Part shown: in pieces, positions 2,237 through 22,955 of the stretch
How positions within the stretch are numbered: position 1 is the stretch's first letter
How the letters are laid out: each line of letters begins with the position of its first letter
Source of the DNA: an uncultured Chlamydiae bacterium
GTDB taxonomy: Bacteria > Chlamydiota > Chlamydiia > Chlamydiales > JAJFMA01
Assembly (NCBI GenBank): GCA_963713615.1
Contig: CAVQMM010000001.1
Location: 1,664,001-1,728,000 of the forward strand
Direction: 5' to 3'
DNA length: 64,000 nucleotides
Translations under genes and position numbers: made by a program
The notes under the pieces: model-generated
What the model was told of the DNA's origin: nothing
Seen by the model: the letters and a program-made list of their open reading frames with translations, nothing else
Database searches by the model: none

Positions 2237-3553
2237 TTATAGAGGGACGATATCTTCACTGAAGGTCTGAGAGCCGAACTGCGACTCTTCCGTAGACCCC
2301 TTGAGGGCCTGCGTAGAGGAATGGCCTTCCATAATCGTGGTGAGAACATCATCAAAATACCCCGCTCCTACAAAGCTCTGATGCTTGAGCGCCTTATACC
2401 CCGACCGACGTTCCAGCTCAAATTCGTGCTGTTGAAAGCGGGAATAAGCAGCCATGCCATCCGAGCAATACTCATGAGCAAGCTCAAACATACTCGCATT
2501 GAGAGTATGAAAACCAGCCAACGTGATAAACTGAAATTTATAGCCTAATTCACCCAATTTATCCTGAAAGATTTCAATCGTGCGATCATCCAAGTTGCCT
2601 CGCCAATTGAATGACGGGGAACAGTTATAGGCTAGCCATTTGCCGGGGAATTTCTCATGCACTCCCTGAGCAAATTCTCGAGCAGCTCCTAAATCAGGTT
2701 TGGAGGTCTCGCACCATACCATATCGCTATAAGGAGCAAACGCCCTAGCACGTGCCACAGCGTATTCCACCCCTCCTTTAAGTTCCCAATAGCCTTCTGA
2801 AGATCGCTCCCCAGTAAGAAAGGGGCGGTCCAGTGGATCAGAATCTGACCGAATATACGTAGCAGACTCGGCATCAGTACGAGCTATGATAATGGTTGGG
2901 ATACCCATAATATCAGCCGCTAAACGGGCTGTCACAAGTTTCTCAACAAAGATGCCTGCAGGGACTAAAACGCGTCCACCCATGTGTCCGCACTTTTTGA
3001 GGGATGAAAGCTGATCTTCCAAGTGAATCGCTGCTGCTCCAGCACAGATCATGGCCTTAATGAGCTCAAAGGTATTAAGCGGCCCCCCAAAACCTGCTTC
3101 AGCATCGGCAACAATAGGTACAAACCAATCTAAATTGCCATGATTGGACAAATGCTGTACTTGATCGGCCCGCATAAATGCATTCTGGATACGTTTAACA
3201 AGGTTGGGAACACTGAGGAGGGGATATAGGCTCTGATCGGGGTAGGTTTGACCGGCATCATTAGCGTCAGCAGCTACCTGCCAGCCGCTAACATAAACAG
3301 CCTTTAGACCGGCCTGTACCTGCTGAACAGCTTGAGTACCAGTCATCGCGCCCATGGCTCGGATAAAGGGCTCTACCTCAAACAAATTCCACAGTTTTTC
3401 AGCTCCCAGGCGTGCCAGAGTATGATCGATATGCAATGACCCACGCAGTTGTACAACCTTCTCAGCGGAATAGGGACGCACCAGGCCCTTCCAGCGAGGG
3501 CTCTCCTTCCAATAGTGCGCTAGGGCATCGATCTGTTCCTTAGTATAAGCCAT
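2237..3553 (-). CDS. aceA: Isocitrate lyase
   Basis: Catalytic [43 protein letters not shown]. Confidence 0.98.
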
Positions 3554-3562
3554 GGATACCTC

Positions 3563-5146
3563 TTAAAGTTGCTCGTATGCTCGCAAAGTCAAGAACTCAA
3601 CGAATTCCTTCTGCATCACTAGACCATCGAGGAGTGTTCTAGCCTCGGCCAACTTACGAATGCCTAATTTGCGTTCCGCATAGGCAGCCATTATCTTACT
3701 TTCTTCCTCACCAGCAATGCGAAGATATAGATCGTTAGTCATGCGCATACCTCCTTTCAACTCTGCTCCATGGTGCAACCACTGCCAAAGCTGAGCACGC
3801 GATATCTCTGCTGTGGCGGCATCTTCCATTAGGCTAAAGATGGCTACGGCTCCGACTCCAGTTAGCCAGCTGTCTAGGTACTGTAAGGTCACATTGATAT
3901 TTTTTCGTACTCCCTCTTCAGTGACCGTTCCCCCAGGAACAGCGAATTGTAGTAATTCATCAGAGGAAATATGTACGTCCTCTCGCATTTTTTGCTTTTG
4001 ATGGGACTGATCGCCAAGGGCCTGTGCAAAGATGTCATGAGCGGTAGGAACAAGATCCGGATGTGCAACCCAAGTACCATCGAAGCCATCTGATGTCTCA
4101 CGCAATTTGTCTTCGCTTACTTTGGCGAGTGCTAGTTCGTTAGCTTCTTTGTCCTTGCGACTAGGTATGAAGGCAGCCATGCCGCCAATAGCGTGAGCAC
4201 CCCGTTGGTGACATACCTTTACTAGCAAATCTGTATAGGCCCTCATGAAGGGCACTGTCATGGTGATCTGTATGCGATCTGGCAGTACAGCTCGTGAGCG
4301 TTGATGAAACTTTTTAATAATACTGAAGATATAGTCCCAACGTCCCGCATTGAGTCCTGAGATATGCTCGCGCAGCTCAAACAGGATTTCTTCCATCTCA
4401 AAGGCCGCCAAAATGGTTTCCAGCAGCACGGTTGCTCGAATAGTTCCGCGCGGGATATTCAACGCTTGTTGTGCATATACGAAAACATCATTCCACAGGC
4501 GTGCTTCGAGGTGGTTCTCTAGCTTAGGCAAATAAAAATAAGGCCCTGTACCTTTCTCAATCAAATTGCGAGCGTTGTGAAAGAGGAACAACCCAAAGTC
4601 AAAGAGAGAGGCGGAAATAGGTACTCCATCGATTAAAAAGTGCTTTTCAACGAGATGCCAGCCTCTTGGGCGAACCATCAGTACGGCAACTTTTGGATTG
4701 AGCTTATACTGTTTCCCTTCAGGACTGGCAAAGGTGAGGGTGCCAGCAATGGCCTTTGTGAGGTTAAGCTGCCCCTCTACCATATTATGCCAGGTAGGAG
4801 AGTTAGCATCCTCGAAATCCGCCATAAAGACATCAGCACCGGAGTTCAGGGCATTTATGACCATTTTACTGTCTGTAGGCCCTGTAATTTCTACCCAACG
4901 CTTTTGTAGATCTTCTGGCACAGGTGCGACCTTCCAGGAATCGTCGCTACGTATCGCCGCCGTTTCTGGTAGAAAAGTGGGCACTTCGCCTTGATCGAGG
5001 CGTTCTTGCCGCAAAGCACGCTTTTGCAGTAGGTCTAGTCGTCGCTCTTTAAAGGTCCTGTGCAGGTCGTGAAGAAATGCTGATGCCTCTGGTGTAAGTA
5101 GCTCAGCAACGTTGGGGGTTTGCTTAACAGTAACCGCTGTGTTCAT
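3563..5146 (-). CDS. aceB: Malate synthase A
   Basis: [50 protein letters not shown] at 5146 chosen because it follows a GGAAGG RBS (ORF track start 5158). Confidence 0.97.
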
Positions 5147-5244
5147 ACTACCTTCCACAAAATGGGTTATTTTCCTCTATAGCTGATCGGTCAAAGCTAC
5201 GCAAGCGATAGACAAATATCTCTCTCTAAGTTATGCGATAGCGC

Positions 5245-7486: not shown

Positions 7487-8110
7487 GTGCCCCTCATGAA
7501 GAGAATAGTTGGCTTAATCATTGTATATGCTCTTCTTTTATTCGCACCTAGGGCAGCAATAGCAACAGATGCCCCACCAATTGATGGCCAAACCCTTCTA
7601 GCCAAGGGAGGGCACCATGGTGGACATCATCACCATGGCCACCACCATCATCATCATCACGGCCACCATCACCATGGACATCACCACCACCATGGACACC
7701 ATCACCACCACGGACACCACCATCATCATGGGGATCATCACGATGGCTGGGACCACCATGGTGACGGCTGGGACCATCATGGTTCGTATAATGGTGTAGG
7801 TGTTTACCCTCCAGGTGAAGCGTATTATAGAACTGTACAGGGGGTATTACCCACCTTCTCATTGAGGGCAAGCACGCCTCAAGTATACGTGGGAGAGCCT
7901 GTTTCCATATCTCTCCCCCACACGACGGGTACGCCACCTTATACGGTGTTTTGGCGGACAAATGACAGCACGCAATGGACAAAAAGCGGCACTAATTTCA
8001 ATGTCAAGGCCACTCAACCTGGCGATATGAAGGTCCATGTTGTGGTCCAGGATGCCAATGGAAAGTTTTCACGTCCTCAGACTACAAACATTAAGGTTCA
8101 AGGACGATAG
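7487..8110 (+). CDS. Secreted His-rich protein with C-terminal Ig/PKD-like beta domain
   Basis: Signal peptide (..PRAAIA), long (H)nG tract, then VGEPVSISL..GTPPYTVFW..VVVQDANG. Confidence 0.75.
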   Translation: MPLMKRIVGLIIVYALLLFAPRAAIATDAPPIDGQTLLAKGGHHGGHHHHGHHHHHHHGHHHHGHHHHHGHHHHHGHHHHHGDHHDGWDHHGDGWDHHGSYNGVGVYPPGEAYYRTVQGVLPTFSLRASTPQVYVGEPVSISLPHTTGTPPYTVFWRTNDSTQWTKSGTNFNVKATQPGDMKVHVVVQDANGKFSRPQTTNIKVQGR

Positions 8111-9230: not shown

Positions 9231-9304
9231 ATATACTCTCCAATCAAGGCTCTTTGCCTTACTATAGAACAACGGATAAATCTAGTACATCGCAGGAAAC
9301 AACG

Positions 9305-10600
9305 ATGACTCATAAAAGACAGGTCTGGGGCAAATACTGCTCTTGGTTTCCTAGCCAGGTAGCCTATCCCTCTTCTCCAGAGGAAGTACGGGACATCCTC
9401 CTCCACGCTCAAAAAAGTCGGCTGAAGATACGCACCATTGGCTCCCTACACTCCATGAATGATCTTTGCAAGACAAGCGACATCCAAATACACACCGATA
9501 AACTATGCAAAGTGATCAACATTGATAAGCAGAGCCTAACCATCAAGGTAGAGAGCGGCATTAAGATCAAGCACCTTCAAGAGCTTCTTGCTGCTGAGGG
9601 ACTGACTCTTCCCAATCAAGGCTACATTGTAGAGCAGAGTGTCGCTGGAGCCATAGCCACTGCGACACATGGTTCGGGCAAGACAGGCACTCTAAGCAGC
9701 TTTGTGGAGGAAATCGAGCTAATCAGCGCTAAAGGCGAACTACATGTCCTTACGCCAGCCTCAAATCCGCATTTGTTTTCGGCGGCGGTGGTCAGTCTAG
9801 GTTGCCTAGGAGTGGTGTCCACGGTAACGCTACGATGCATCCCACAACAAAAGCTCCATTTATCAAAAGTCAAGATGAGCGTGCAGCCCCTGCTAGATCA
9901 ACTCTCAAGCATCCGAGAACACAACGATTTCTACCAATTGGTCATCAACCCTTACAGTGATGAGGCATTGACATGGCAATTTCGTAAAACGGATGAACCG
10001 CTGCGTCATTGTTTTTACTACCAGCTGCGAAGACTGATGGGAAAGGCCCTGGCTATCTTTGCATTCGACATTCTTCCACCCCCCACCTGGCTTGTACCCA
10101 CAGTGGTGAAAACGTATATGACGCTTTCGCCTTTTAAGGGTTGTGTAGACTATGGCTATCATTTGCTTTCCCCAGCGGACGAAGGCCATTACGTTGAGGA
10201 AGAGATAGCTGTACCAATAGCACACTTTGAAAAGGCTCTGTTGGCTACGCGAAAACTCATTGACGAATTTAACGTAAAAGGCACTCGCGTCGTGGCTATC
10301 ATCTTGGTGCGTTTTGCCGAAGCTGATGCGTATGGCTACCTAAGTCCGACTCTGAACCGCAAAACTGCCTACATCAGCCTGATCACAATAGCAAAACCAG
10401 GATATCAAGAGCTTTTTGAAGCGGTTGAGCAGGCCCTATACGCTTATGAAGGACGTCCTCACTGGGGTAAGGTGCACTTTTTAAACCGAGATAGGGTTGC
10501 AAAACTGTATCCGGAGACATATCCTTCATTCATCGCCGCACGCCGCGAGCTTGATCCAGAAGGCGTTTTCGCAAATGATTACATCGAACGCCTGTTTTGA
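9305..10600 (+). CDS. FAD-linked aldonolactone oxidase (L-gulonolactone / D-arabinono-1,4-lactone oxidase family)
   Basis: GSLHS FAD-attachment His, SVAGAIATATHGSG, SLGCLGV, C-terminal GRPHWGK..LDPEGVFAN. Confidence 0.88.
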   Translation: MTHKRQVWGKYCSWFPSQVAYPSSPEEVRDILLHAQKSRLKIRTIGSLHSMNDLCKTSDIQIHTDKLCKVINIDKQSLTIKVESGIKIKHLQELLAAEGLTLPNQGYIVEQSVAGAIATATHGSGKTGTLSSFVEEIELISAKGELHVLTPASNPHLFSAAVVSLGCLGVVSTVTLRCIPQQKLHLSKVKMSVQPLLDQLSSIREHNDFYQLVINPYSDEALTWQFRKTDEPLRHCFYYQLRRLMGKALAIFAFDILPPPTWLVPTVVKTYMTLSPFKGCVDYGYHLLSPADEGHYVEEEIAVPIAHFEKALLATRKLIDEFNVKGTRVVAIILVRFAEADAYGYLSPTLNRKTAYISLITIAKPGYQELFEAVEQALYAYEGRPHWGKVHFLNRDRVAKLYPETYPSFIAARRELDPEGVFANDYIERLF

Positions 10601-10606
10601 GGCTGA

Positions 10607-10771
10607 TATACCACTCACGCGTAGGTTGTGTACATTTCGACTAGCGTGAAAGCTCCCGTGGTTGAACGATCGCAAGTGGGTCCATATTTGTAATATTGAC
10701 CCACTTGCGATCGTTCAACCCCGGGGCTTTGGCGCAGTCGAAATATGCACAACCTACGCGTGAGTGGTATA
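10607..10771. mobile_element. 165-bp hairpin MITE with TATACC..GGTATA ends
   Basis: Near end-to-end imperfect palindrome (tataccactcacgcgtaggttgtg / cacaacctacgcgtgagtggtata). Related ends at 51221 and 63100. Confidence 0.75.
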
Positions 10772-10840: not shown

Positions 10841-11632
10841 ATGGACGTTCGTGGTGCTGGAATCATCCCGTGTGCTTCCTATGGGGGTGAAGAGTACCTT
10901 CTCCTCGGCGAGCAAGGTTGTACCATTAACAGAGAATGGGGAGATCTGGGTGGCAAACGTGATCCTGGAGAATCCGTGCACGCCACGGCTGCTCGCGAGG
11001 CACACGAGGAAAGTCGCGGTGTGCTGGGTTCAACGCTGGGACTCATTTTCCGAACCTTCTGGCCCATGGAGACTATTGCACTACGTCAATACCGTAGTTA
11101 TCTCTGTCGATGGAGGATCTCAAATCTCTGCGATATTCCCAAGAGGTTTCAAAGAACCCACCGCCATGGACATGTCTTTAACGAAATGAACCAGTTGCAA
11201 TGGGTCAAAGCCTCGGAAGTCCATGACGCCGCTATGAACTACCGCCCTGGCTCCGGCAAATGCGTATGCACAGCCGCGGGTAAACGACTTGCTAGACGTT
11301 GCACCGGTGTGCTTCGCCGCAGCAGTGGCTATGCGCGCCACGCGGCAAGTCAAGTGGATCGCATTTCTACCTCCACAGGACATGCCTTGATTAACCTCAA
11401 GAATGGAAGAGCCTTTTTGGTAGAGCAGCGAGGTTCTTCAAGCGACAATCTCATCCTGAAAAGACACACTGGGCCTCAAAGCCTTTGGCAACGTATCAAA
11501 GACTTCTGTCTTGTATTGCTATTTCTTAAGCCTAACGAAGCCTCTAGCGCGGAACGTGAGGCAATCTTCCATGCCTTGCAACAAGAATCTCTAGTTCATC
11601 GCTTGTATCGCCGTGTGGAACGGTTCGTGTAG
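10841..11632 (+). CDS. Nudix hydrolase with C-terminal extension
   Basis: Nudix box GGKRDPGESVHATAAREAHEESRG; GAGG RBS. Confidence 0.85.
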   Translation: MDVRGAGIIPCASYGGEEYLLLGEQGCTINREWGDLGGKRDPGESVHATAAREAHEESRGVLGSTLGLIFRTFWPMETIALRQYRSYLCRWRISNLCDIPKRFQRTHRHGHVFNEMNQLQWVKASEVHDAAMNYRPGSGKCVCTAAGKRLARRCTGVLRRSSGYARHAASQVDRISTSTGHALINLKNGRAFLVEQRGSSSDNLILKRHTGPQSLWQRIKDFCLVLLFLKPNEASSAEREAIFHALQQESLVHRLYRRVERFV

Positions 11633-11772
11633 CCTTTTTTAACGCAAAAGCGCAAAGAAGAGCTCATGTGTGTGCATGCACGGCATAAGTAGGGTAAATA
11701 ACCCTACTTATGCCATGTATCATAACGGTGAGCTCTTCTTTGCGCCTTTGCGTTAAAAGGCTACACGAACCG
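11621..11772. mobile_element. 152-bp MITE/REP doublet (CGGTTCGTGTAGC..AACGCAAAGGCGCAAAG family)
   Basis: About 44-bp terminal IRs and an internal hairpin ggcataagtagggta-aa-taccctacttatgcc. Related copies at 19104-19138 and 28130-28185. Confidence 0.8.
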
Positions 11773-11787
11773 GTCTACTGAATCTCG

Positions 11788-11816
11788 TTGTGTTCAAGTT
11801 TGAGAGCGTTTATAAT
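11788..11816 (+). promoter_or_regulatory. Candidate sigma70/sigma66 promoter for the AAA+ ATPase
   Basis: TTGTGT-17 bp-TATAAT; a G11 run follows at 11848-11858. Confidence 0.4.
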
Positions 11817-11974
11817 ATGCTCACTACAAAGGGCTTTGTAAGTTTTCGGGGGGGGGGGATCATCATGTATATTCACACGCATCTGCATCCGTCCTAGTAA
11901 ATTTTATTTTCGGAAATGTGGCCATCTGCTTTCTCGCGATGGCACGTATTGTTATTTTATGGGGAGGTTTTCGG

Positions 11975-13645
11975 ATGGATTTTACATTTCGTTATGTAGT
12001 AGGTCCCGCCGTGGCAGTAACTAGCGTTATAACTACCGCTGTGGTTGTTGGGGGCGGCTATTTATATGCCGGCTTACAGGTAGCTCCGGATATGGATGTG
12101 GCCAATAAAATCAAGAATTTTCTCTTTGATAGAGTACCAGACAGCACGGAAGAGGGCGCTAAGGTATTTGTTCAAAAAGTTGGGGCTGGAACAATCAACG
12201 CTGTTGGCGAGGGTCTCAATTCGCCTCATTTTAAGGAAGCGTTAACGAAATTGATCAATTCCCTCGGAACAGTATTTACCTCAGGTCTAGGGGATCTAAA
12301 CCGGGTCATCGGGGACATGAGTAAGCATTTTGGCAACATCGGAACAAGTCTCGCTAAAAACCTCAAGGAAATCAGTGCGCCATCGCTACACGAAGTTGCG
12401 GGTATTTTTCGAGACTTCATGAAAAATATCTCTTTCACCATGATCACCACATGGGTGCCTACGATGGTCGCTTGGGGCGCGCTCTCTGTGGGAACTCCAC
12501 TGCTGCTAAGATATATCTACTATCGAGCCAAGCACATGATTGGCCGCCCCAGCCTAATGATCGAATATAAAACGATCACGATATTTACGCCGGTGAAGGA
12601 GCTTTGCTCCAAAATCACCCAACTCTTCAGGAATGCCTCTGAACAAATCAAAACACCCTTTTTCAATGCGGAAGTCACACGCCGTACGAATGAGATCATC
12701 AAAGCTACCTATAATATCAAAAAACATGGTGGAAACTTTCAAAATCTAATTCTCCATGGTCCTGGCGGTACTGGTAAGACGATGATCGCTAGCAAAATTG
12801 CTCGTGAAGCCGGCATGAACTATATCATGATGTCCGGAGGCGACCTAGCACAATACATCAAACGAGGCGAGCACGTCACCGAACTGAATAAAATGTTGAA
12901 ATTTGCCAACAATGGCTCGCAACCAACAATTCTCTTCATCGATGAAGCCGAGGCAATGTGTAAAAACCGCGATGTCCTCGATCAAGAGCATACCGAATTG
13001 CTCGACGGCTTTCTCAAACAAACAGGTGAAGCCAACAAGAATATGATGATTATTATGGCAACTAACCGCCTACATGACATCGACCCTGCTGTGTTAAGCC
13101 GCATGGACCATAAGGTGCATGTTGGCGCTCCTGACTATACCCAAAGGATGAATATCTTGAGGCAGTACGTTCAGCGGCAGTTTAGCAAAACCGATATCAA
13201 TAACTTCTTCACAGATAGGCAAATAGGATCCATCGCAAGCAGAACGACTGGTCTGACAGGCCGAGCCCTCGAGAAGCTCGTCAATGCCATCTACTGCAAG
13301 AAGGCGACCACGGATGACAATAAGCTAACCCAAAGACTGATCAATGAGTCCATCTACGACTTTGTCACGCAAGAACGAGATTTGCCTGGTGCGGAGCGCT
13401 CTTGGTTGTTTGTAGAGAGAATCAGCGACTTCTGGTACTTCACGATCCCTGCAATCAGCAACTATTGCATGGAGATCATTTCGGCCATTGGAGCAGTGCT
13501 GTCCGGTACCACAGACTTTGGTCTCAGTGAAGCTGTAACAGAGAAGATCAGAGACATGGGATACGCAGATTGGTTCGGAATACTTCCCAAGGCAGAGCCA
13601 AGACGCTGGTCTTTCTGGCCCAGTGCATTAGAACGGTACGTGTAA
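11975..13645 (+). CDS. Membrane-anchored AAA+ ATPase, ATAD3-like
   Basis: Walker A GPGGTGKT, Walker B ILFIDEAE, sensor ATN, SRH DPAVLSR; TM segments upstream. Start set at the ATG after a GGAGG RBS. Confidence 0.85.
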   Translation: MDFTFRYVVGPAVAVTSVITTAVVVGGGYLYAGLQVAPDMDVANKIKNFLFDRVPDSTEEGAKVFVQKVGAGTINAVGEGLNSPHFKEALTKLINSLGTVFTSGLGDLNRVIGDMSKHFGNIGTSLAKNLKEISAPSLHEVAGIFRDFMKNISFTMITTWVPTMVAWGALSVGTPLLLRYIYYRAKHMIGRPSLMIEYKTITIFTPVKELCSKITQLFRNASEQIKTPFFNAEVTRRTNEIIKATYNIKKHGGNFQNLILHGPGGTGKTMIASKIAREAGMNYIMMSGGDLAQYIKRGEHVTELNKMLKFANNGSQPTILFIDEAEAMCKNRDVLDQEHTELLDGFLKQTGEANKNMMIIMATNRLHDIDPAVLSRMDHKVHVGAPDYTQRMNILRQYVQRQFSKTDINNFFTDRQIGSIASRTTGLTGRALEKLVNAIYCKKATTDDNKLTQRLINESIYDFVTQERDLPGAERSWLFVERISDFWYFTIPAISNYCMEIISAIGAVLSGTTDFGLSEAVTEKIRDMGYADWFGILPKAEPRRWSFWPSALERYV

Positions 13646-13984
13646 CCTTTTTTAGACTAAAGGACATAAAGAGGTAATTGCGGAAGTATTTGGGCTCTCA
13701 TGGATCGGTTCTTTGAAAAAAATCACTTTTTTTTGTGAGAAGGCGATTCTGGAGAGCTTAAGTGGTATGGCACTATCCAGTCTGGAAAGACAGGCTTTTC
13801 TCCCTTCCCAGGCCCGAAGGGTCGATATTGCAACAGGCCATGGCATCGCCACATAGGCCTCAACCTAACAGGTCTTTTGAGCTTATATCTCAATGACTTA
13901 GGACTTCACAATCGTATCTCGGCGCGCAGCGCTTTGGAGTGCGGTCGCTTGCGACGTAAGCGTCAATTGAGGCCATCTGGCGAT

Positions 13985-15529
13985 TTATTCGGCAGTGGGG
14001 GCTGATGAGGTGGATGAGGCCTTTGCTTGTCGCCTGGCGGCAGCCCAAGCGTCGGGCAGAAGCTCGTGAAGTTTTTGAGAATTATGGGCTGGCAGGCGCC
14101 TCATCACATCCTCTAGGTATTCGTGGGGGTTGACTCCTATCGCGCGGCAGGTCTGTACCAGGCTTAGCAGTACGGCGGAAGCTTCCCCACCCTCCTCGCT
14201 TCCAATAAACATCCAGTTCTTGCGGCCAATAGCTAGAGGGCGTATCGCTCGCTCCGCTACATTGTTGTCGAGACGCGCAAATGCATGTTGGGTGTAGTTT
14301 TTCAGATGGGGAATTAAGCTGCAATAATAGCCTAGAGCCTCCCTTAGATTCGATTTGGGAAGAGCCTTGCCATTAACCAGCCGGTCCTTGATGCGTGCAG
14401 TCAGCTCATCTATTATTGGAGCTTCTTTCTCTTGTCTTATCCGCAGACGTTCCTCTGGAGAACGTTCCCAAGCAACTCTCTCTAACATAAATAGATATTT
14501 TATCTTGCGCAGTACCCAGCTAACAAATTTTTTATCGCCACCTACAGCGTCGAAAAACTTGCGCCGAATGTGACTCCAGCATGGACACCAAGTGAATTGC
14601 TTCTTATTAGCCAGTGCTTCATAGGCTCCATATTTATCCGAATGGACAACACCTTTATATCCAGCTAGTATTTCCACAGCATGCTTGTGGCAGCGGTCCG
14701 TGCGAAAATGATAGACTCGATAAGGCGGATTTTTTTCCTGCCCTCCAACGATCACCCACATAAAAGCCTGGTGCACCTTTCCCTTACCAGGGACAAGCAT
14801 GTCCACAGGAGATTCGTCCACAAAAACATTGTTGCTGCTGAGCACGCGAGCAATCATTTCTTCATATAGCGCCTTTAAGGCATATCCACAGCGCATTACC
14901 CACTTGCAAAGTATTTGTCGGCTGATGAGAATGCCCTCGCGAGCTAAGATTTCCGATTGACGAAATAAAGGAAGGTGATCGGCGAATTTTTTCACGATCA
15001 CACTGGCTAAAAGACTCTCATCGGCTTGACAGCGAGGAAAAATGCTATCTGGTAAATCTGCGATAAAAACGCCCTCTTCACTATGTGCTCTACATGCATA
15101 CTTGGGACGTACTAGCTCCTTGACGTAGTAGCTACCTGGCGTATGCGCTATTTTGTGAGTGACTTCTTCGCCAATTTTGACGAGGGCTTCACCCGTTGTA
15201 GGGCAAACTTTTTGATCCTCTGGCAAATCTAAAATACAGCGTTGAACGGGAATATTGTCTGGAAGCGTAATTTTATCTTTGCCATTGCGCCCCTGCTTAA
15301 CCCGTCGATGAGCAGGCACATTTATTGTCTCTTTTTGCTCTTCGGAACCAAGATTTTCGAAACCTTCCAGGTAGAGTTGTTGACCGCCATCGTCGACTAC
15401 TTTTTCCGAACGTTTCCCAAAAATCTGACGCCTAAACCATTCAAGCTGCTCCTTGAGAAAGCTATTCTCATTTCGCAGGGAATAAATTTCCGATTGAAGC
15501 TGTTCTAGTGATAGTGTTGAGGTTTCCAT
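13985..15529 (-). CDS. tnpC: IS66 DDE transposase
   Basis: FGKRSEK, zinc finger CPTTG..RPKYAC, KFADHLPLFRQ, VDES, HSDKY, CWSHIRRKF, DNNVAERAIRPLAIGRKNW. Confidence 0.97.
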   Translation of the reverse strand: METSTLSLEQLQSEIYSLRNENSFLKEQLEWFRRQIFGKRSEKVVDDGGQQLYLEGFENLGSEEQKETINVPAHRRVKQGRNGKDKITLPDNIPVQRCILDLPEDQKVCPTTGEALVKIGEEVTHKIAHTPGSYYVKELVRPKYACRAHSEEGVFIADLPDSIFPRCQADESLLASVIVKKFADHLPLFRQSEILAREGILISRQILCKWVMRCGYALKALYEEMIARVLSSNNVFVDESPVDMLVPGKGKVHQAFMWVIVGGQEKNPPYRVYHFRTDRCHKHAVEILAGYKGVVHSDKYGAYEALANKKQFTWCPCWSHIRRKFFDAVGGDKKFVSWVLRKIKYLFMLERVAWERSPEERLRIRQEKEAPIIDELTARIKDRLVNGKALPKSNLREALGYYCSLIPHLKNYTQHAFARLDNNVAERAIRPLAIGRKNWMFIGSEEGGEASAVLLSLVQTCRAIGVNPHEYLEDVMRRLPAHNSQKLHELLPDAWAAARRQAKASSTSSAPTAE

Positions 15530-15611
15530 ATGCTCTAAATCATATCACAGACCCCCTCTATTATCAAGTATTTTATCTAATAAAATGCACATTGTTTTTA
15601 GGATTTTAGGC

Positions 15612-16193
15612 TCAATGACTACTCTCCAACAACATTAGAAATTCTCGACGATCGATAGCGGAATCTGGAATGCTTCCATTGCGAAAACTTCCTTTTTCAA
15701 GTCGCTTGTACCAGACGGCATGACCATTACCATCCCAGTAAAAGACCTTCACTAGATTTCTACGACGATTTAAAAAAACGAAGTAGGCCCCGCAGGTAAA
15801 TTCGCCCGAGAACGAACTGTCAACAAGATTGCTCAAGCACTCAAATCCCTTTCGCATATCGATCGGCTCTTGATAGAGAAAGACACCCTTGTTTTTCTGA
15901 TATGACGACCTCAGAGTTTTGCTCGCAGACTTTAGGGTTAGATAGACGCTCTTCTGATCAAGCGAAAGCTTGAGCTCGGGCAGGGTAATGTCTATCCAAC
16001 CCGTCGAGGAAATGTGGTCGGGCGGGCTAACTTTAAAGCGTTGGTACCAGTACAAGAGCTGCTGGTAGCTTATATTGTTCTCTAGGCACCACCTGCGGCC
16101 ACTCTGACCGCTCGCCATCCATTGGTCTATGCGTCGAGCCCACTCAGAACGCTTCCTTTTGAAATCCATTAGTATCTCCATGGTTAGGGTCAT
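15612..16193 (-). CDS. IS66 accessory protein, TnpA-TnpB fusion
   Basis: N-terminal TnpA-type HTH (W..SGQSGRRWC....ISY..L.YW) fused in frame to IS66 TnpB (IDMRKGF, FVFLNRRR..VK.FYWDGNG..KRLEKG). Confidence 0.88.
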   Translation of the reverse strand: MTLTMEILMDFKRKRSEWARRIDQWMASGQSGRRWCLENNISYQQLLYWYQRFKVSPPDHISSTGWIDITLPELKLSLDQKSVYLTLKSASKTLRSSYQKNKGVFLYQEPIDMRKGFECLSNLVDSSFSGEFTCGAYFVFLNRRRNLVKVFYWDGNGHAVWYKRLEKGSFRNGSIPDSAIDRREFLMLLESSH

Positions 16194-16250
16194 GGAGAAA
16201 ACTTAGAACCTCGCGGAATTACGAAAAAGGTGGCTTCAATTGACGCTTAC

Positions 16251-16401
16251 CTTGCGACCGCTTTTCGTTCCTTGGGACGGCAATGCTAAACGGCATTGTA
16301 TGGATTCGTCGAAGGCTGCATGTACTAACTATTTTACCCTTAGGGAATTATAGTAATGCCGTTGCACACGACCGTCGCAAGGAACCCAAAGCGGTCGCAA
16401 G
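16251..16401. repeat. Inner arms and core of the interrupted REP doublet
   Basis: Homologous to 61278-61428, with the core in the opposite orientation. Confidence 0.9.
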
Positions 16402-16458
16402 GTAAGCGTCAATTGAAGCCACCTTTTTCGTAATTCCGCGAGGTTCTAAGTTTTCTCC

Positions 16459-17040
16459 ATGACCCTAACCATGGAGATACTAATGGATTTCAAAAGGAAG
16501 CGTTCTGAGTGGGCTCGACGCATAGACCAATGGATGGCGAGCGGTCAGAGTGGCCGCAGGTGGTGCCTAGAGAACAATATAAGCTACCAGCAGCTCTTGT
16601 ACTGGTACCAACGCTTTAAAGTTAGCCCGCCCGACCACATTTCCTCGACGGGTTGGATAGACATTACCCTGCCCGAGCTCAAGCTTTCGCTTGATCAGAA
16701 GAGCGTCTATCTAACCCTAAAGTCTGCGAGCAAAACTCTGAGGTCGTCATATCAGAAAAACAAGGGTGTCTTTCTCTATCAAGAGCCGATCGATATGCGA
16801 AAGGGATTTGAGTGCTTGAGCAATCTTGTTGACAGTTCGTTCTCGGGCGAATTTACCTGCGGGGCCTACTTCGTTTTTTTAAATCGTCGTAGAAATCTAG
16901 TGAAGGTCTTTTACTGGGATGGTAATGGTCATGCCGTCTGGTACAAGCGACTTGAAAAAGGAAGTTTTCGCAATGGAAGCATTCCAGATTCCGCTATCGA
17001 TCGTCGAGAATTTCTAATGTTGTTGGAGAGTAGTCATTGA
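16459..17040 (+). CDS. IS66 accessory protein, TnpA-TnpB fusion
   Basis: Identical translation to 15612-16193. Confidence 0.88.
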   Translation: MTLTMEILMDFKRKRSEWARRIDQWMASGQSGRRWCLENNISYQQLLYWYQRFKVSPPDHISSTGWIDITLPELKLSLDQKSVYLTLKSASKTLRSSYQKNKGVFLYQEPIDMRKGFECLSNLVDSSFSGEFTCGAYFVFLNRRRNLVKVFYWDGNGHAVWYKRLEKGSFRNGSIPDSAIDRREFLMLLESSH

Positions 17041-17122
17041 GCCTAAAATCCTAAAAACAATGTGCATTTTATTAGATAAAATACTTGATAATAGAGGGGG
17101 TCTGTGATATGATTTAGAGCAT

Positions 17123-18667
17123 ATGGAAACCTCAACACTATCACTAGAACAGCTTCAATCGGAAATTTATTCCCTGCGAAATGAGAATAGCTTTCTCAAG
17201 GAGCAGCTTGAATGGTTTAGGCGTCAGATTTTTGGGAAACGTTCGGAAAAAGTAGTCGACGATGGCGGTCAACAACTCTACCTGGAAGGTTTCGAAAATC
17301 TTGGTTCCGAAGAGCAAAAAGAGACAATAAATGTGCCTGCTCATCGACGGGTTAAGCAGGGGCGCAATGGCAAAGATAAAATTACGCTTCCAGACAATAT
17401 TCCCGTTCAACGCTGTATTTTAGATTTGCCAGAGGATCAAAAAGTTTGCCCTACAACGGGTGAAGCCCTCGTCAAAATTGGCGAAGAAGTCACTCACAAA
17501 ATAGCGCATACGCCAGGTAGCTACTACGTCAAGGAGCTAGTACGTCCCAAGTATGCATGTAGAGCACATAGTGAAGAGGGCGTTTTTATCGCAGATTTAC
17601 CAGATAGCATTTTTCCTCGCTGTCAAGCCGATGAGAGTCTTTTAGCCAGTGTGATCGTGAAAAAATTCGCCGATCACCTTCCTTTATTTCGTCAATCGGA
17701 AATCTTAGCTCGCGAGGGCATTCTCATCAGCCGACAAATACTTTGCAAGTGGGTAATGCGCTGTGGATATGCCTTAAAGGCGCTATATGAAGAAATGATT
17801 GCTCGCGTGCTCAGCAGCAACAATGTTTTTGTGGACGAATCTCCTGTGGACATGCTTGTCCCTGGTAAGGGAAAGGTGCACCAGGCTTTTATGTGGGTGA
17901 TCGTTGGAGGGCAGGAAAAAAATCCGCCTTATCGAGTCTATCATTTTCGCACGGACCGCTGCCACAAGCATGCTGTGGAAATACTAGCTGGATATAAAGG
18001 TGTTGTCCATTCGGATAAATATGGAGCCTATGAAGCACTGGCTAATAAGAAGCAATTCACTTGGTGTCCATGCTGGAGTCACATTCGGCGCAAGTTTTTC
18101 GACGCTGTAGGTGGCGATAAAAAATTTGTTAGCTGGGTACTGCGCAAGATAAAATATCTATTTATGTTAGAGAGAGTTGCTTGGGAACGTTCTCCAGAGG
18201 AACGTCTGCGGATAAGACAAGAGAAAGAAGCTCCAATAATAGATGAGCTGACTGCACGCATCAAGGACCGGCTGGTTAATGGCAAGGCTCTTCCCAAATC
18301 GAATCTAAGGGAGGCTCTAGGCTATTATTGCAGCTTAATTCCCCATCTGAAAAACTACACCCAACATGCATTTGCGCGTCTCGACAACAATGTAGCGGAG
18401 CGAGCGATACGCCCTCTAGCTATTGGCCGCAAGAACTGGATGTTTATTGGAAGCGAGGAGGGTGGGGAAGCTTCCGCCGTACTGCTAAGCCTGGTACAGA
18501 CCTGCCGCGCGATAGGAGTCAACCCCCACGAATACCTAGAGGATGTGATGAGGCGCCTGCCAGCCCATAATTCTCAAAAACTTCACGAGCTTCTGCCCGA
18601 CGCTTGGGCTGCCGCCAGGCGACAAGCAAAGGCCTCATCCACCTCATCAGCCCCCACTGCCGAATAA
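17123..18667 (+). CDS. tnpC: IS66 DDE transposase
   Basis: Identical translation to 13985-15529. Confidence 0.97.
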   Translation: METSTLSLEQLQSEIYSLRNENSFLKEQLEWFRRQIFGKRSEKVVDDGGQQLYLEGFENLGSEEQKETINVPAHRRVKQGRNGKDKITLPDNIPVQRCILDLPEDQKVCPTTGEALVKIGEEVTHKIAHTPGSYYVKELVRPKYACRAHSEEGVFIADLPDSIFPRCQADESLLASVIVKKFADHLPLFRQSEILAREGILISRQILCKWVMRCGYALKALYEEMIARVLSSNNVFVDESPVDMLVPGKGKVHQAFMWVIVGGQEKNPPYRVYHFRTDRCHKHAVEILAGYKGVVHSDKYGAYEALANKKQFTWCPCWSHIRRKFFDAVGGDKKFVSWVLRKIKYLFMLERVAWERSPEERLRIRQEKEAPIIDELTARIKDRLVNGKALPKSNLREALGYYCSLIPHLKNYTQHAFARLDNNVAERAIRPLAIGRKNWMFIGSEEGGEASAVLLSLVQTCRAIGVNPHEYLEDVMRRLPAHNSQKLHELLPDAWAAARRQAKASSTSSAPTAE

Positions 18668-19188
18668 ATCGCCAGATGGCCTCAATTGACGCTTACGTCG
18701 CAAGCGACCGCACTCCAAAGCGCTGCGCGCCGAGATACGATTGTTAGGCTTAGGTTGAGGCCTATGTGGCATCGCCATGGTATATGCCAGGAAGGGATTT
18801 CGCAGTCTGAAGGACTGCTACAAGACGCCAGTTTACAAACACCATTTATGCATGCGCTTTATGGCAGCCCTACAGGCTGCTAAAACCGTTTTGGCATATA
18901 CCATGGCGATGCCATGGCCTGTTGCAATATCGACCCTTCGGGCCTGGGAAGGGAATGACTCTCTCTTCACCGGCATCCGATTTTCAGGAAATTGACTTCG
19001 GAAAATCGGACTTCTGCAATTACCTCTAAAGGACTTAGGAAGCACACTCTACAAGTCCTTTATGTCTTTTATGTCCCTTTGGTCCTTTAGTCCATCCGTG
19101 ACCCTGCGCCTTTGCGTTAAAAAGAGCTACACGAACCGCTCACCAATATGGTATCAATGAATAAACATAGATACCTCCTGGAGTCGCT

Positions 19189-19991: not shown

Positions 19992-22955
19992 ATGGATAAT
20001 ATAGTAAACAATATACAAGAGAATCCAATCAATTATAGTAACATCGATAATCATCAACGGTGGTGTGTAGACTCTCACGGGACAATTCGCACGGAAGAGA
20101 AAAAGGGCTTTTTTGGACGAATTTTTAGTTTCTTTCGCAGCGAATCTACCAAGCTTGACAAGGTATTTGCCGCTATGTTGGATGACATCGATGCGATAGA
20201 TGATCCTAGCAAAACAAACTGCCAAGATTTGTTATATCTCTGTAACCTCGTAGAAGAACGCTATTCCAAAGCTGCCCGTGCGGGTGTTATTGTAGCTGGT
20301 CATGGAGATGCTGAGGCAAATAAAGAAGCTATTCTCAATGCCAGCTATCAAAAACTGGGTGGTGTGATTTTTGGTGACCCAAACTGGAAAGCTAATGAAG
20401 AGATTTCGGAAGACGAACGAGCTGTCTTGGCATCTATTTACAGTTTCCTTAACAGTACCGGAATGAATAGAGCGGATATAGAAGAATTTACACAAACCAT
20501 TGTTCAACAATTTCCAGATCTACAGGATGAGAACACCTCCGCAAACATGTATATGCGTATGGCGGAATTAGGTTTTCCCGCAGCCCAAGTTATCGCATAC
20601 TCTATCGAACAAGATGCAGCTTTGCGTATTGGGCTCCTTAACGCCGCTAGTGACTCGGGTTGCCTCCTAGCAACCAGGATTCTGGAAAACCAGCTGCGTG
20701 ACATGGATGACGCTGATAATTATCCTCTCATTCACCAATTGACTGAAAAACTTGCGGACCACGATCTCAACGCCCGCTTCCGTTTAGCCTTCGATCATTT
20801 GACAGGCTGCGGAACTGAAATAGATATCGATAGAGCCTTAGAAATTGCAGAGGGGAATGATCGTGAAGATTTCGAGAGAATTCAAAACATCTGCCAGTCC
20901 TTAAAGCAAGCGCCGCAAGAGGTTACTAGACAGACTATTAGAACGCTCTTGAGCGACTTAACAGCATTGATTCCAAGCGCAAATGGTCGTCGACGCCTCC
21001 TAGAACAGCTTGTCAATAACTATCCTTTGGTACACCTCGTCAACGCTCTGTCGCAGGACATTGATTTAGAAGTTTACGAAGATTTAATAGCCCAAGGCTT
21101 TGAAATTGCAAGAGAAGGTTTAGCAGATAAATATCTACAACTGGCACGCTATGAAGAAGCCTTTGTCACTCTATGGGAACTAGCCGAAAATGATGCCCAA
21201 GCGATGTATTCTCTTGTCGAAACATTTGGGCCTCTAGGCCACCAAATACTCAACACACAGGTCAGTCTCGAACTGTTGAGAAAGTTCGACGATAGACCTC
21301 TAAGTGATGAGCTAGCAGCGAACTTTAACCGCCTATATGTGGACATTGAAGCACAAACTAGAGTCATCGCGCTAGCGAATCGCCTTGATAGAATAAAAGA
21401 CAATCCCGATATCGCCCCTCTCTACGTAGCCGAATTTCATAATTACGATACCTTTATGACTGAGCACGAGTTTAGCGATGACATGAAAGCTGAAGTCAAA
21501 GTGGCCTTTATGTACCAGTATGGGATCGGTGGAGTCTCTGAGAATATTCCATTAGCTCGCCTGGGCTATAAACATCTGGCCCGGAGCATTTATGAGCAAG
21601 CCCATCAATTCATGAGAGAGGGTGAGTATGATAAAGCCCTTCGTTTCATGGAAAGAGCCGCAAAGCTCGGAAATATCGAAGCGTGCTATCAGGCTGTACG
21701 CATGAGACAACTAAACCTAACAGGCGACCACAATCCCAAAACAATTTTAGACCTGATCCATCACTCAATGATAGACCAAACTCAAGTTCCTGGTAAGTTG
21801 CGTTTCTGCGAAGCAGATACTCTGTATTTCGACTACAAGGACATGGGAAACAGCATCGATGCATACATTGAGGCTGCAACCCTAGAAGAGCCCATGGCGT
21901 TAAAAGTCCTGCATGAGCTTGTAGATGCTAAAGTCATAGCAGAAAAGGACATCCCATTCGAAACTGAGCGGTTGCTTGAGCAAGCTAGGATAAAAACCAG
22001 ACAAAATCTAACAGTAGCCGCCTCAACGGCACGCAGTGACTATCTCAGTCCCGGCGATGCGCTGACTATGCTGGAATCGGTTGTAACGTGCATTGAGATA
22101 TCCGAGGAGCTGAAAAGCTATGCCCAAAACCTTCTTGATCAAGAGGATGTTGCGGTCTATTTGAATGACGTCCTTCCTTTCGGTGAATCCGTTCTTCTAG
22201 CTAACTTGGCCACACTCATGGCAGCTGCTAGCGTGACTGAGGCAACTGAGGGAATGGCGTTAGAAAGAGTGGCCAAATATCTCTTTAATATGGATCGTCC
22301 TACTGAAGAGGAAATAGAGATCGCCAGAAGCCTTCGTGATTGGGCAGTGAAAAACAAGGAATTTTTCCAAGCTGGCGATCTAATGCGCAAGCGAGAATTC
22401 GCCGAGGCTCAGCATTTATACGCTGCGTTAGCTGCTGGCGGTGATCACCGTGGCTGGTATCCAGCTGCAAGGCTACTAGAGCTCGGTTTTCTAGGAGATG
22501 AAGCCTCCGGAGCTGCTGTCGCATACTATAATGAAGACTTGTCCAATGTTAATAGTCAATACGCCCTTGCATTGTATCTACAAAAGACTGGTCAGCCTGG
22601 ATATGAGGACATCTATCGCTCTCTGTATGAAGATGGCTATGGTCCGGCGGATATTCAGCTGGCTTTGATGGCAGAGCAAGAACTTCTATTTGGCTTAGAT
22701 CTAGGCTATATTGATGAGTCTGTTGAAAATCAACGCTCCAAAATTGGTTCGTTGTTAGAATATGATATCGCACTCGCTCAGCGCGGAGAGACGACAATTC
22801 TACGCATCGCCAACCTCTTGAGCTATCTCAATGCACTCGATGAGAACCTGGTTGTCGCCACAGGCGAAGCATGGAACAGCATCTTGAACGGTTCAGATGA
22901 CTTTGAACAAATCCTGATAGACGTCCTAATGACCTATGAGGAAGAGGAACAATAA
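19992..22955 (+). CDS. Large acidic alpha-helical protein with Sel1-like repeats, candidate secreted effector
   Basis: SLR-like motifs (ARFRLAFDHLTGCGTEIDIDRA, YQYGIGGVSENIPLA, MERAAKLGNIEACY); N/Q-rich N-terminus with KKGFFGRIFSFF; no Sec signal. Confidence 0.7.
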   Translation: MDNIVNNIQENPINYSNIDNHQRWCVDSHGTIRTEEKKGFFGRIFSFFRSESTKLDKVFAAMLDDIDAIDDPSKTNCQDLLYLCNLVEERYSKAARAGVIVAGHGDAEANKEAILNASYQKLGGVIFGDPNWKANEEISEDERAVLASIYSFLNSTGMNRADIEEFTQTIVQQFPDLQDENTSANMYMRMAELGFPAAQVIAYSIEQDAALRIGLLNAASDSGCLLATRILENQLRDMDDADNYPLIHQLTEKLADHDLNARFRLAFDHLTGCGTEIDIDRALEIAEGNDREDFERIQNICQSLKQAPQEVTRQTIRTLLSDLTALIPSANGRRRLLEQLVNNYPLVHLVNALSQDIDLEVYEDLIAQGFEIAREGLADKYLQLARYEEAFVTLWELAENDAQAMYSLVETFGPLGHQILNTQVSLELLRKFDDRPLSDELAANFNRLYVDIEAQTRVIALANRLDRIKDNPDIAPLYVAEFHNYDTFMTEHEFSDDMKAEVKVAFMYQYGIGGVSENIPLARLGYKHLARSIYEQAHQFMREGEYDKALRFMERAAKLGNIEACYQAVRMRQLNLTGDHNPKTILDLIHHSMIDQTQVPGKLRFCEADTLYFDYKDMGNSIDAYIEAATLEEPMALKVLHELVDAKVIAEKDIPFETERLLEQARIKTRQNLTVAASTARSDYLSPGDALTMLESVVTCIEISEELKSYAQNLLDQEDVAVYLNDVLPFGESVLLANLATLMAAASVTEATEGMALERVAKYLFNMDRPTEEEIEIARSLRDWAVKNKEFFQAGDLMRKREFAEAQHLYAALAAGGDHRGWYPAARLLELGFLGDEASGAAVAYYNEDLSNVNSQYALALYLQKTGQPGYEDIYRSLYEDGYGPADIQLALMAEQELLFGLDLGYIDESVENQRSKIGSLLEYDIALAQRGETTILRIANLLSYLNALDENLVVATGEAWNSILNGSDDFEQILIDVLMTYEEEEQ

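Follow-up and report, generated by a model that had tools for sequence, protein, structure and literature searches.

An ATAD3-related family of AAA+ ATPases in Chlamydiota

A 64,000-nucleotide stretch of the genome of an uncultured Chlamydiae bacterium (the window) encodes, at positions 11975..13645 of the forward strand, a 556-residue AAA+ ATPase (P0001) with no internal stop, which on comparative sequence evidence is a true relative of the ATAD3 proteins of eukaryotes, with secure homology. Within an ATAD3 superfamily it represents a chlamydial branch that has apparently not been described before, and, judging from this kinship, it is predicted to work like the membrane-anchored motor of ATAD3. 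The initial annotation, which proposed the relationship, treated ATAD3 as a eukaryotic family, in agreement with a review that confines it to eukaryotes (PMC7663417). According to another source, ATAD3A lies in the mitochondrial inner membrane with its ATPase facing the matrix, and ATAD3 is mutated in human neurological disease (PMC10419812); in Plasmodium it is described as essential in a third (PMC13249166). No paper on a bacterial ATAD3 was found in the open full-text literature, the supplementary gene-transfer tables of which may list the family, and papers pairing ATAD3 with Chlamydiae or chlamydia are unrelated, as judged by their titles and the beginnings of their abstracts.

Architecture of the protein and its kinship with ATAD3

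The window genome, which is 99% complete and has the window on a 3.9-Mb contig, encodes the chlamydial histone Hc1 above cut-off and an OmcB-family match below threshold, and those relatives of the protein that have a taxon name come under Chlamydiae, Chlamydiales or Rhabdochlamydiaceae. We prefer the ATG at 11975 over an upstream GTG at 11918 as the start codon because it is preceded at a distance of 6 nt by a Shine-Dalgarno sequence, GGAGGT (11963..11968); promoter and terminator searches gave nothing above chance level. Pieces of the gene of 151-187 nt occur with zero differences in three public peat/soil runs, so that it is no assembly artefact; two 151-nt contigs matching it in one RNA library were not counted as a sign of transcription. 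With a GC content of 0.47 and codon use at the 33rd percentile, the gene bears no sign of recent foreign origin or of recent transfer from a host. Hairpin MITE-like elements lie at 10607-10771, 11615-11778 and 13631-13654; the stop codons of the ATAD3-like ORF and of a NUDIX ORF both sit in a 24-nt repeat (92% alike) matching a MITE end, which suggests that the element provides the final codons of each ORF.

The protein begins with a Val/Gly-rich hydrophobic stretch atypical of the family (residues 5-37; 11987..12085, forward strand as for all features below; KD19 up to 2.01, AlphaFold2 pLDDT below 50), which is a possible signal anchor. Where the ATAD3_N coiled coil would be, it has amphipathic helices (residues 59-151; 12149..12427), helical in the model, with a hydrophobic moment of 0.39 and no match to PF12037. 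A transmembrane (TM) helix follows between the conserved Pro162 and Pro175 (residues 160-180; 12452..12514) and is succeeded by a basic patch; the initial annotation had reported this segment, and AlphaFold2 predicts a helix at residues 154-190; the hydrophobicity of the segment is only marginal (KD19 maximum 1.33). Next come the ATAD3-type motif IGRPSLxxE (residues 189-197; 12539..12565), homologous to LGKPSLVRE and with Pro192 kept in 98% of 150 family members, and a pre-Walker-A helix (residues 232-251; 12668..12727) that the model and a profile alignment indicate to be common to ATAD3.

The AAA core comprises a Walker A motif, GPGGTGKT (residues 262-269; 12758..12781), with G262, G265, G267 and K268 invariant in the 150 members; a non-canonical pore loop 1 segment (SGGDLAQYIKRGEHVTELNKML; 12833..12898) of 22 residues; a Walker B motif, ILFIDE (residues 319-324; 12929..12946; D323 conserved in 100%, E324 in 99%); and the stretch from sensor 1 Asn364 (99%) to the arginine finger Arg376 (100%; 13064..13102). 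Across the 150 members these catalytic residues are thus 99-100% conserved. The helical lid (residues 388-469; 13136..13381) contains invariant Arg391 and Arg430 and a TDDNKLT segment resembling the SEDGxLT of ATAD3, and a C-terminal, aromatic-rich, mildly hydrophobic helix (residues 478-510; 13406..13504) is present in the subclade that holds both copies of the window genome. All seven motifs quoted in the initial annotation are found, starting at residues 189, 241, 279, 301, 319, 343 and 446, and the sequences LGKPSLVRE, MTGGDVAP and LNAFLYRTG in PF12037-positive ATAD3s are near-identical to those it had cited for human ATAD3A.

For comparison we assembled eukaryotic ATAD3s from a metagenome motif scan (118 loci, of which 23 have an open frame of 530 codons or more and all of these carry PF12037 and AAA) and from 120 PF12037-positive proteins, many of them named (plants, green algae, oomycetes and one animal); the sample is biased in that no alveolate, excavate or amoebozoan ATAD3 was identified in it. 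ATAD3 is reportedly missing from fungi. One protist subfamily (L077:1904-3985; P0356-P0360, P0362, P0370) has, by precomputed Pfam assignments, an extra PF13884 domain before ATAD3_N. A profile built from 19 eukaryotic ATAD3s gave the window protein 192 bits and, among the matches listed, other family members 92-216 bits and other AAA domains at most 89, with 58 for the genome's own FtsH; the most divergent chlamydial copies scored 44-81 bits per piece, within the outgroup range. BLASTP against an ATAD3 aligned residues 172-490 at 29% identity (158 bits). Conversely, each of 145 eukaryotic ATAD3 queries found either the gene (142) or its paralog (3) as the best match among the 2930 ORFs of the genome, the paralog being a 607-residue protein encoded 650 kb away and 38% identical over the matched part. 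No eukaryotic ATAD3 was among those listed matches to the window protein that were scanned with Pfam. An ESM Atlas listing placed a Chlamydiota cluster first and two clusters with ATAD3_N second and fifth, along with a Bdellovibrionota-rich cluster; the reverse query without PF12037 clusters gave generic AAA clusters only.

That the likeness extends beyond generic AAA motifs, as initially claimed, is upheld by profile-profile comparison. The chlamydial family and ATAD3 align with 100% over 294 columns, and with the P-loop removed 115 upstream residues still match ATAD3 (hhalign 95.8%, E 8e-9), versus 3-7% for FtsH controls. AlphaFold2 models of both proteins, of which that of ATAD3 is weak in the membrane-proximal region, present the TM helix, a short strand, a helix, the pre-Walker helix, the AAA domain and the lid in the same order. 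The two further share the G-x-P-S-L-x-x-E, M[ST]GGD, FIDEA[DE], L(N/D)AFLxxTG and lid motifs, a non-canonical pore loop 1 and a weak TM helix. However, ATAD3_N is absent from the window protein (E 0.001) and from 56 relatives (E 1e-8), which puts the protein outside the definition of eukaryotic ATAD3: its amphipathic N-region replaces the coiled coil, its pore loop segment is longer, it lacks a variable insert found inside the ATAD3 lid, and the gene is bacterial, patchy and multi-copy, with about 29% identity to ATAD3. With FtsH, Cdc48 and PAN it shares the AAA fold, Walker A and B, sensor 1 and the arginine finger; in contrast to them it has neither a protease nor a second AAA domain, no aromatic-hydrophobic-Gly pore loop and no homology upstream of the AAA core. 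The M41 protease domain was not found in it, the FtsH-family match reaching 84 bits against a cut-off of 600 and covering the AAA part only.

Of 222 chlamydial rows, 54 could not be scored; in 160 of the other 168 the pore loop segment is 22 residues long, against a length of 20 in 141 of 143 rows for ATAD3 and of 21 in FtsH-type domains. Its length can change, as one chlamydial protein has 20. In the window protein the loop reads YIKRG, in place of the FVG of FtsH-type domains. The N-region before the TM helix spans 17-377 residues and is little conserved in sequence, yet it is amphipathic, with a hydrophobic moment of 0.35 versus 0.20 when shuffled, exceeding the shuffle in 128 of 129 members. 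A mean net charge of +3 marks the basic patch after the TM helix. In 57 of 148 members, but not in the window protein, the motif is followed by an insert of about 90 residues; 47 of these 57 have hydrophobic segments in it (two in 14, one in 33), and ten have none. A homo-trimer prediction scored 0.03, which is evidence neither for nor against a ring.

Dependentiae relatives, phylogeny and origin

A second bacterial ATAD3-like family came to light through a Chlamydiota assembly (G150) whose protein, the 26th match from this phylum, is of a different type. At least 120 proteins are related to it; where a taxon is given for them it is Babeliales, Dependentiae or TM6, save in the query's own record. 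The contig in question (G150:C143; L296 / L345; 3637 nt, GC 31%), whose neighbouring genes encode signal peptides, is likely misbinned, the other option being transfer between phyla. Like the chlamydial proteins, these come from intracellular parasites of protists and combine a TM helix, the ATAD3-type motif and an AAA domain with a 22-residue pore loop segment (105 of 118 rows). They differ in a charged coiled coil, which passes the PF12037 cut-off in 4 of 22 scanned relatives, in the frequency of a signal peptide by a crude test (78 of 113, versus 9 of 145 chlamydial members, the window protein among the latter's passers), and in a stronger TM helix (median hydrophobicity 2.06, compared with 1.66 in the chlamydial family, 1.44 in ATAD3 and 2.32 for FtsH TM2). 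In domain architecture they are nearer to ATAD3 than the chlamydial family is, and their layout of signal peptide, coiled coil, TM helix and AAA domain is that of a bacterial inner-membrane protein. The window protein itself scores higher against ATAD3 (median 109 bits) than against the Dependentiae family (72 bits), a pattern to be expected if the two bacterial families evolved rapidly away from a root resembling ATAD3. We found no description of the Dependentiae family in the open full-text literature, and among the Dependentiae papers listed ATAD3 goes unmentioned. Chromulinavorax, a parasite from Dependentiae, is described as replicating inside invaginations of mitochondria (PMC6561590).

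Trees were built with FastTree (117 rows), by quick maximum likelihood (80 rows) and, after removal of 20 of the 80 rows for long branches or redundancy, under LG+C20 (60 rows, 251 columns); eukaryotic Msp1, spastin and BCS1 lay outside the trees, the meiotic and BCS1 clades being covered indirectly through PDB searches. A branch uniting the chlamydial family, Dependentiae and ATAD3 apart from FtsH/Cdc48/PAN-type domains received support of 73 with FastTree, in which long outgroup branches were included, 99 by quick maximum likelihood and 100/100 under LG+C20. Several proteins of 1,000-2,300 residues with three to seven tandem AAA domains (P0122, P0123, P0128, P0132, P0133 and others) group with the outgroup. 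Within the joint branch of the LG+C20 tree, the ATAD3s are monophyletic (95/80) with Dependentiae as their sister group (100/96), and the chlamydial proteins branch off at the base as a grade, in which two rows outside the main clade lack a known taxon; this basal position is weak, since the distant outgroup may attract fast-evolving bacterial branches. AU tests reject a chlamydial clade with FtsH (p-AU 0.0008), and hence the placement among generic bacterial AAA ATPases that would have contradicted the initial annotation. They do not reject the chlamydial family with Dependentiae (p 0.43), with ATAD3 (p 0.29) or nested with one ATAD3 subgroup (p 0.26).

With regard to the proposed derivation from a host, the best tree places the family outside the sampled eukaryotic ATAD3s, and the AU tests reject none of the three alternatives. 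That same position gives no support to recent capture from a sampled eukaryotic lineage, which we consider unlikely. Probably, and with somewhat better than even chances, the gene was captured long ago from a stem or unsampled eukaryote and then spread and duplicated among chlamydiae. A tentative alternative, to which we give about one chance in four, is that ATAD3 is bacterial in origin: it would have been a host-membrane-gripping AAA+ motor of intracellular bacteria, which an ancestor of eukaryotes acquired from such a symbiont and not from the alphaproteobacterial ancestor of mitochondria. The chlamydial family would then be the oldest branch, with a minimal TM helix and motor, and the coiled coil would have been gained on the line to Dependentiae and ATAD3, a corollary that we hold just as tentatively. 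The best-tree topology, the agreement of the pore-loop indel and the finding of no homolog in 401 Alphaproteobacteria-labelled genomes would fit such an origin. Some other history is about as improbable as recent capture.

Distribution and genomic setting

Matches to the family profile were obtained in 26 of 400 Chlamydiota genomes, with four candidates scored per genome and one genome unscored; 25 carriers are of the chlamydial type, with one to three copies each. Carriers other than the window genome fall into five of 44 family groups (3 of 4, 1 of 23, 9 of 69 including G150, 7 of 90 and 5 of 8 genomes), of which one, f10, includes a protein labelled Rhabdochlamydiaceae by NCBI, and none of the 29 searched genomes of group f4, which are 1.0-1.2 Mb in size, gave a match. 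Among 14 loci we found no conserved operon, a single shared neighbour pair, and no neighbour common to the window locus and the others. The gene tree mixes family groups, with 14 changes of family label against a minimum of four and starred cross-family pairs, which may reflect transfer, hidden paralogy or misbinning. The family has the patchy pattern of an accessory gene in Chlamydiota.

Beyond this phylum, a mixed profile (A3, E 1e-42) found no carrier among 401 Alphaproteobacteria-, 201 Opitutales-, 251 Gammaproteobacteria- and 201 Deltaproteobacteria-labelled genomes, with 3-7 candidates scored per genome; Rickettsiales lay outside the target, the Gammaproteobacteria-labelled group (genomes of about 1 Mb) is possibly another group, and the positive control recovered four of five known carriers. 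A generic Walker A pattern run on 185,579 prokaryote genomes yielded at least 603 stretches (best E 1e-18), which served as an outgroup source only and are uninformative on the range of the family. Among viruses, a scan of related loci gave generic AAA matches only, and none of seven loci from a motif scan matched the family profile.

Just downstream of the gene in the window lies an inverted pair of IS66 elements (13908-16297 and 16355-18744), 100% identical over 2390 nt and 57 nt apart; the genome has 18 matches to the element that are 2 kb or longer. Upstream, a gene of the FAD-linked D-arabinono-1,4-lactone oxidase family (9254-10600, forward; PF04030 and PF01565) is two genes away, an exported-looking 207-residue protein (7487-8110, forward) combines an extended His/Gly tract with a weak Ig-like match, and adjacent isocitrate lyase and malate synthase genes (2237-5158, reverse) constitute a glyoxylate shunt, to our knowledge unusual in Chlamydiota. 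A 987-residue orphan with no NCBIfam or Pfam match (19992-22955, forward) is found near the gene, and two further orphans (L001:10154-11659, 501 residues, and 11705-15046, 1113 residues), with no NCBIfam match, are found near an ATAD3-like copy; the large orphans near both copies are possible effectors.

Candidate roles and significance

We see an even chance that the protein is a membrane-bound AAA+ motor, exported by type III secretion, that acts on the inclusion or on host organelles. Once secreted, as is likely, by the chlamydial type III system, it would sit in a host-side membrane, that of the inclusion or one at a contact with the host mitochondrion or ER, where the predicted ring would either remodel proteins of the membrane or hold membranes together. 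The motor would lie on the same side as the basic patch behind the TM helix, which would be the host cytosol on the inclusion, or the matrix if the protein is imported like ATAD3, and the amphipathic helices, standing in for the ATAD3 coiled coil, may attach to another lipid surface. The Ile-Lys-Arg sequence of the non-canonical pore loop points to a selective grip on specific, possibly acidic, partners rather than the threading of any polypeptide. An active ring-forming motor follows from general knowledge of AAA+ proteins; we infer ATP hydrolysis and a hexameric ring from this biology and the conserved residues, and export, host-side location and target from indirect signs.

Among these signs are the accessory-gene pattern (25 carriers among 400 genomes, no shared neighbours, cross-family pairs), although the pairs could also stem from misbinned contigs as with G150:C143; the fact that most members have long N-regions but no Sec signal; a TM helix weaker than bacterial anchors and near the ATAD3 value; and the presence in the genome of the type III export-gate family PF00771. 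The sole match to that family (G000:C2:13417-15456) lies on the 16.8-kb contig C2, which, since it carries this match, is probably a piece of the chromosome and not a plasmid. Another sign is the hydrophobic insert in about one third of the members, which recalls the bilobed hydrophobic domain of the Inc proteins, inclusion membrane proteins delivered by type III secretion (PMC6925127), with which the family has in common a restriction to certain lineages, poor conservation and, for most members, the lack of a Sec signal; the same source has Waddlia drawing mitochondria and ER to its vacuole. We claim no sequence homology to Inc proteins, and the window protein is without the insert. Inc proteins are not known to carry an AAA domain.

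Several observations fit instead a motor of the bacterium's own inner membrane, with a cytoplasmic orientation comparable to the matrix orientation of ATAD3, which would remodel or tether envelope proteins, for instance as elementary and reticulate bodies convert into each other; we rate this about one chance in three. The basic patch, read as positive-inside, would fit a cytoplasm-facing bacterial motor equally well, the hydrophobic N-terminus of the window protein, which passes the crude signal-peptide test, would fit a Sec-inserted two-pass protein, and most Dependentiae relatives, with their signal peptides and stronger TM helices, appear to be laid out in this way. The best tree, which does not nest the chlamydial family in eukaryotic ATAD3, and the GC and codon use noted above likewise weigh against the preferred reading, with its exported motor and old eukaryotic source. 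A role in the bacterium's own envelope, however, sits poorly with the 375 of 400 Chlamydiota genomes in which the gene was not found at four candidates scored per genome (all 29 of f4 included), with the lack of conserved partner genes, and with 136 of 145 members that have no crude signal peptide yet place a median of 150 residues before a weak TM helix.

An unlikely rival reading is a decoy that co-assembles with host ATAD3 in mitochondria as a dominant-negative or retuning subunit. The part retained, namely the TM helix, the motif after it and the AAA module, is what the protein has in common with ATAD3, and the review cited above holds that ATAD3B may inhibit ATAD3A in a dominant-negative manner (PMC7663417); but identity to ATAD3 is only about 29%, the coiled coils that form the oligomerisation scaffold of ATAD3 according to PMC10419812 are missing, and a decoy would not need full catalytic conservation. 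Finally, a generic bacterial AAA ATPase of the FtsH/Cdc48/PAN type, resembling ATAD3 by convergence or long-branch attraction, would account for the purely generic Pfam families, the sub-threshold FtsH/PAN/CDC48 matches in NCBIfam, the best PDB matches to Cdc48/FtsH (FtsH/p97 only in a fold search) and the outgroup-range scores of the most divergent members, and a tree without eukaryotic Msp1, spastin and BCS1 leaves it some room, but it is largely refuted by the rejected FtsH clade and the upstream homology, and further by the 100/100 branch, the reciprocal choice of the two paralogs by all 145 ATAD3 queries and a PDB that could not name ATAD3, as the ATAD3 profile returned no ATAD3 entry from it, so that we hold it to be very improbable.

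Whether the motor is exported or not, two unrelated phyla of protist parasites bear ATAD3-related families. The chlamydial one pares ATAD3 down to the TM helix, the motif that follows it and the motor, and so reveals a conserved core, for the structure and biochemistry of which it offers many natural variants. The origin of ATAD3 is reopened as a question, and it becomes testable whether eukaryotes gained the gene from an intracellular bacterium, as does the possible use by parasites of an ATAD3-like motor on the organelles of their hosts.
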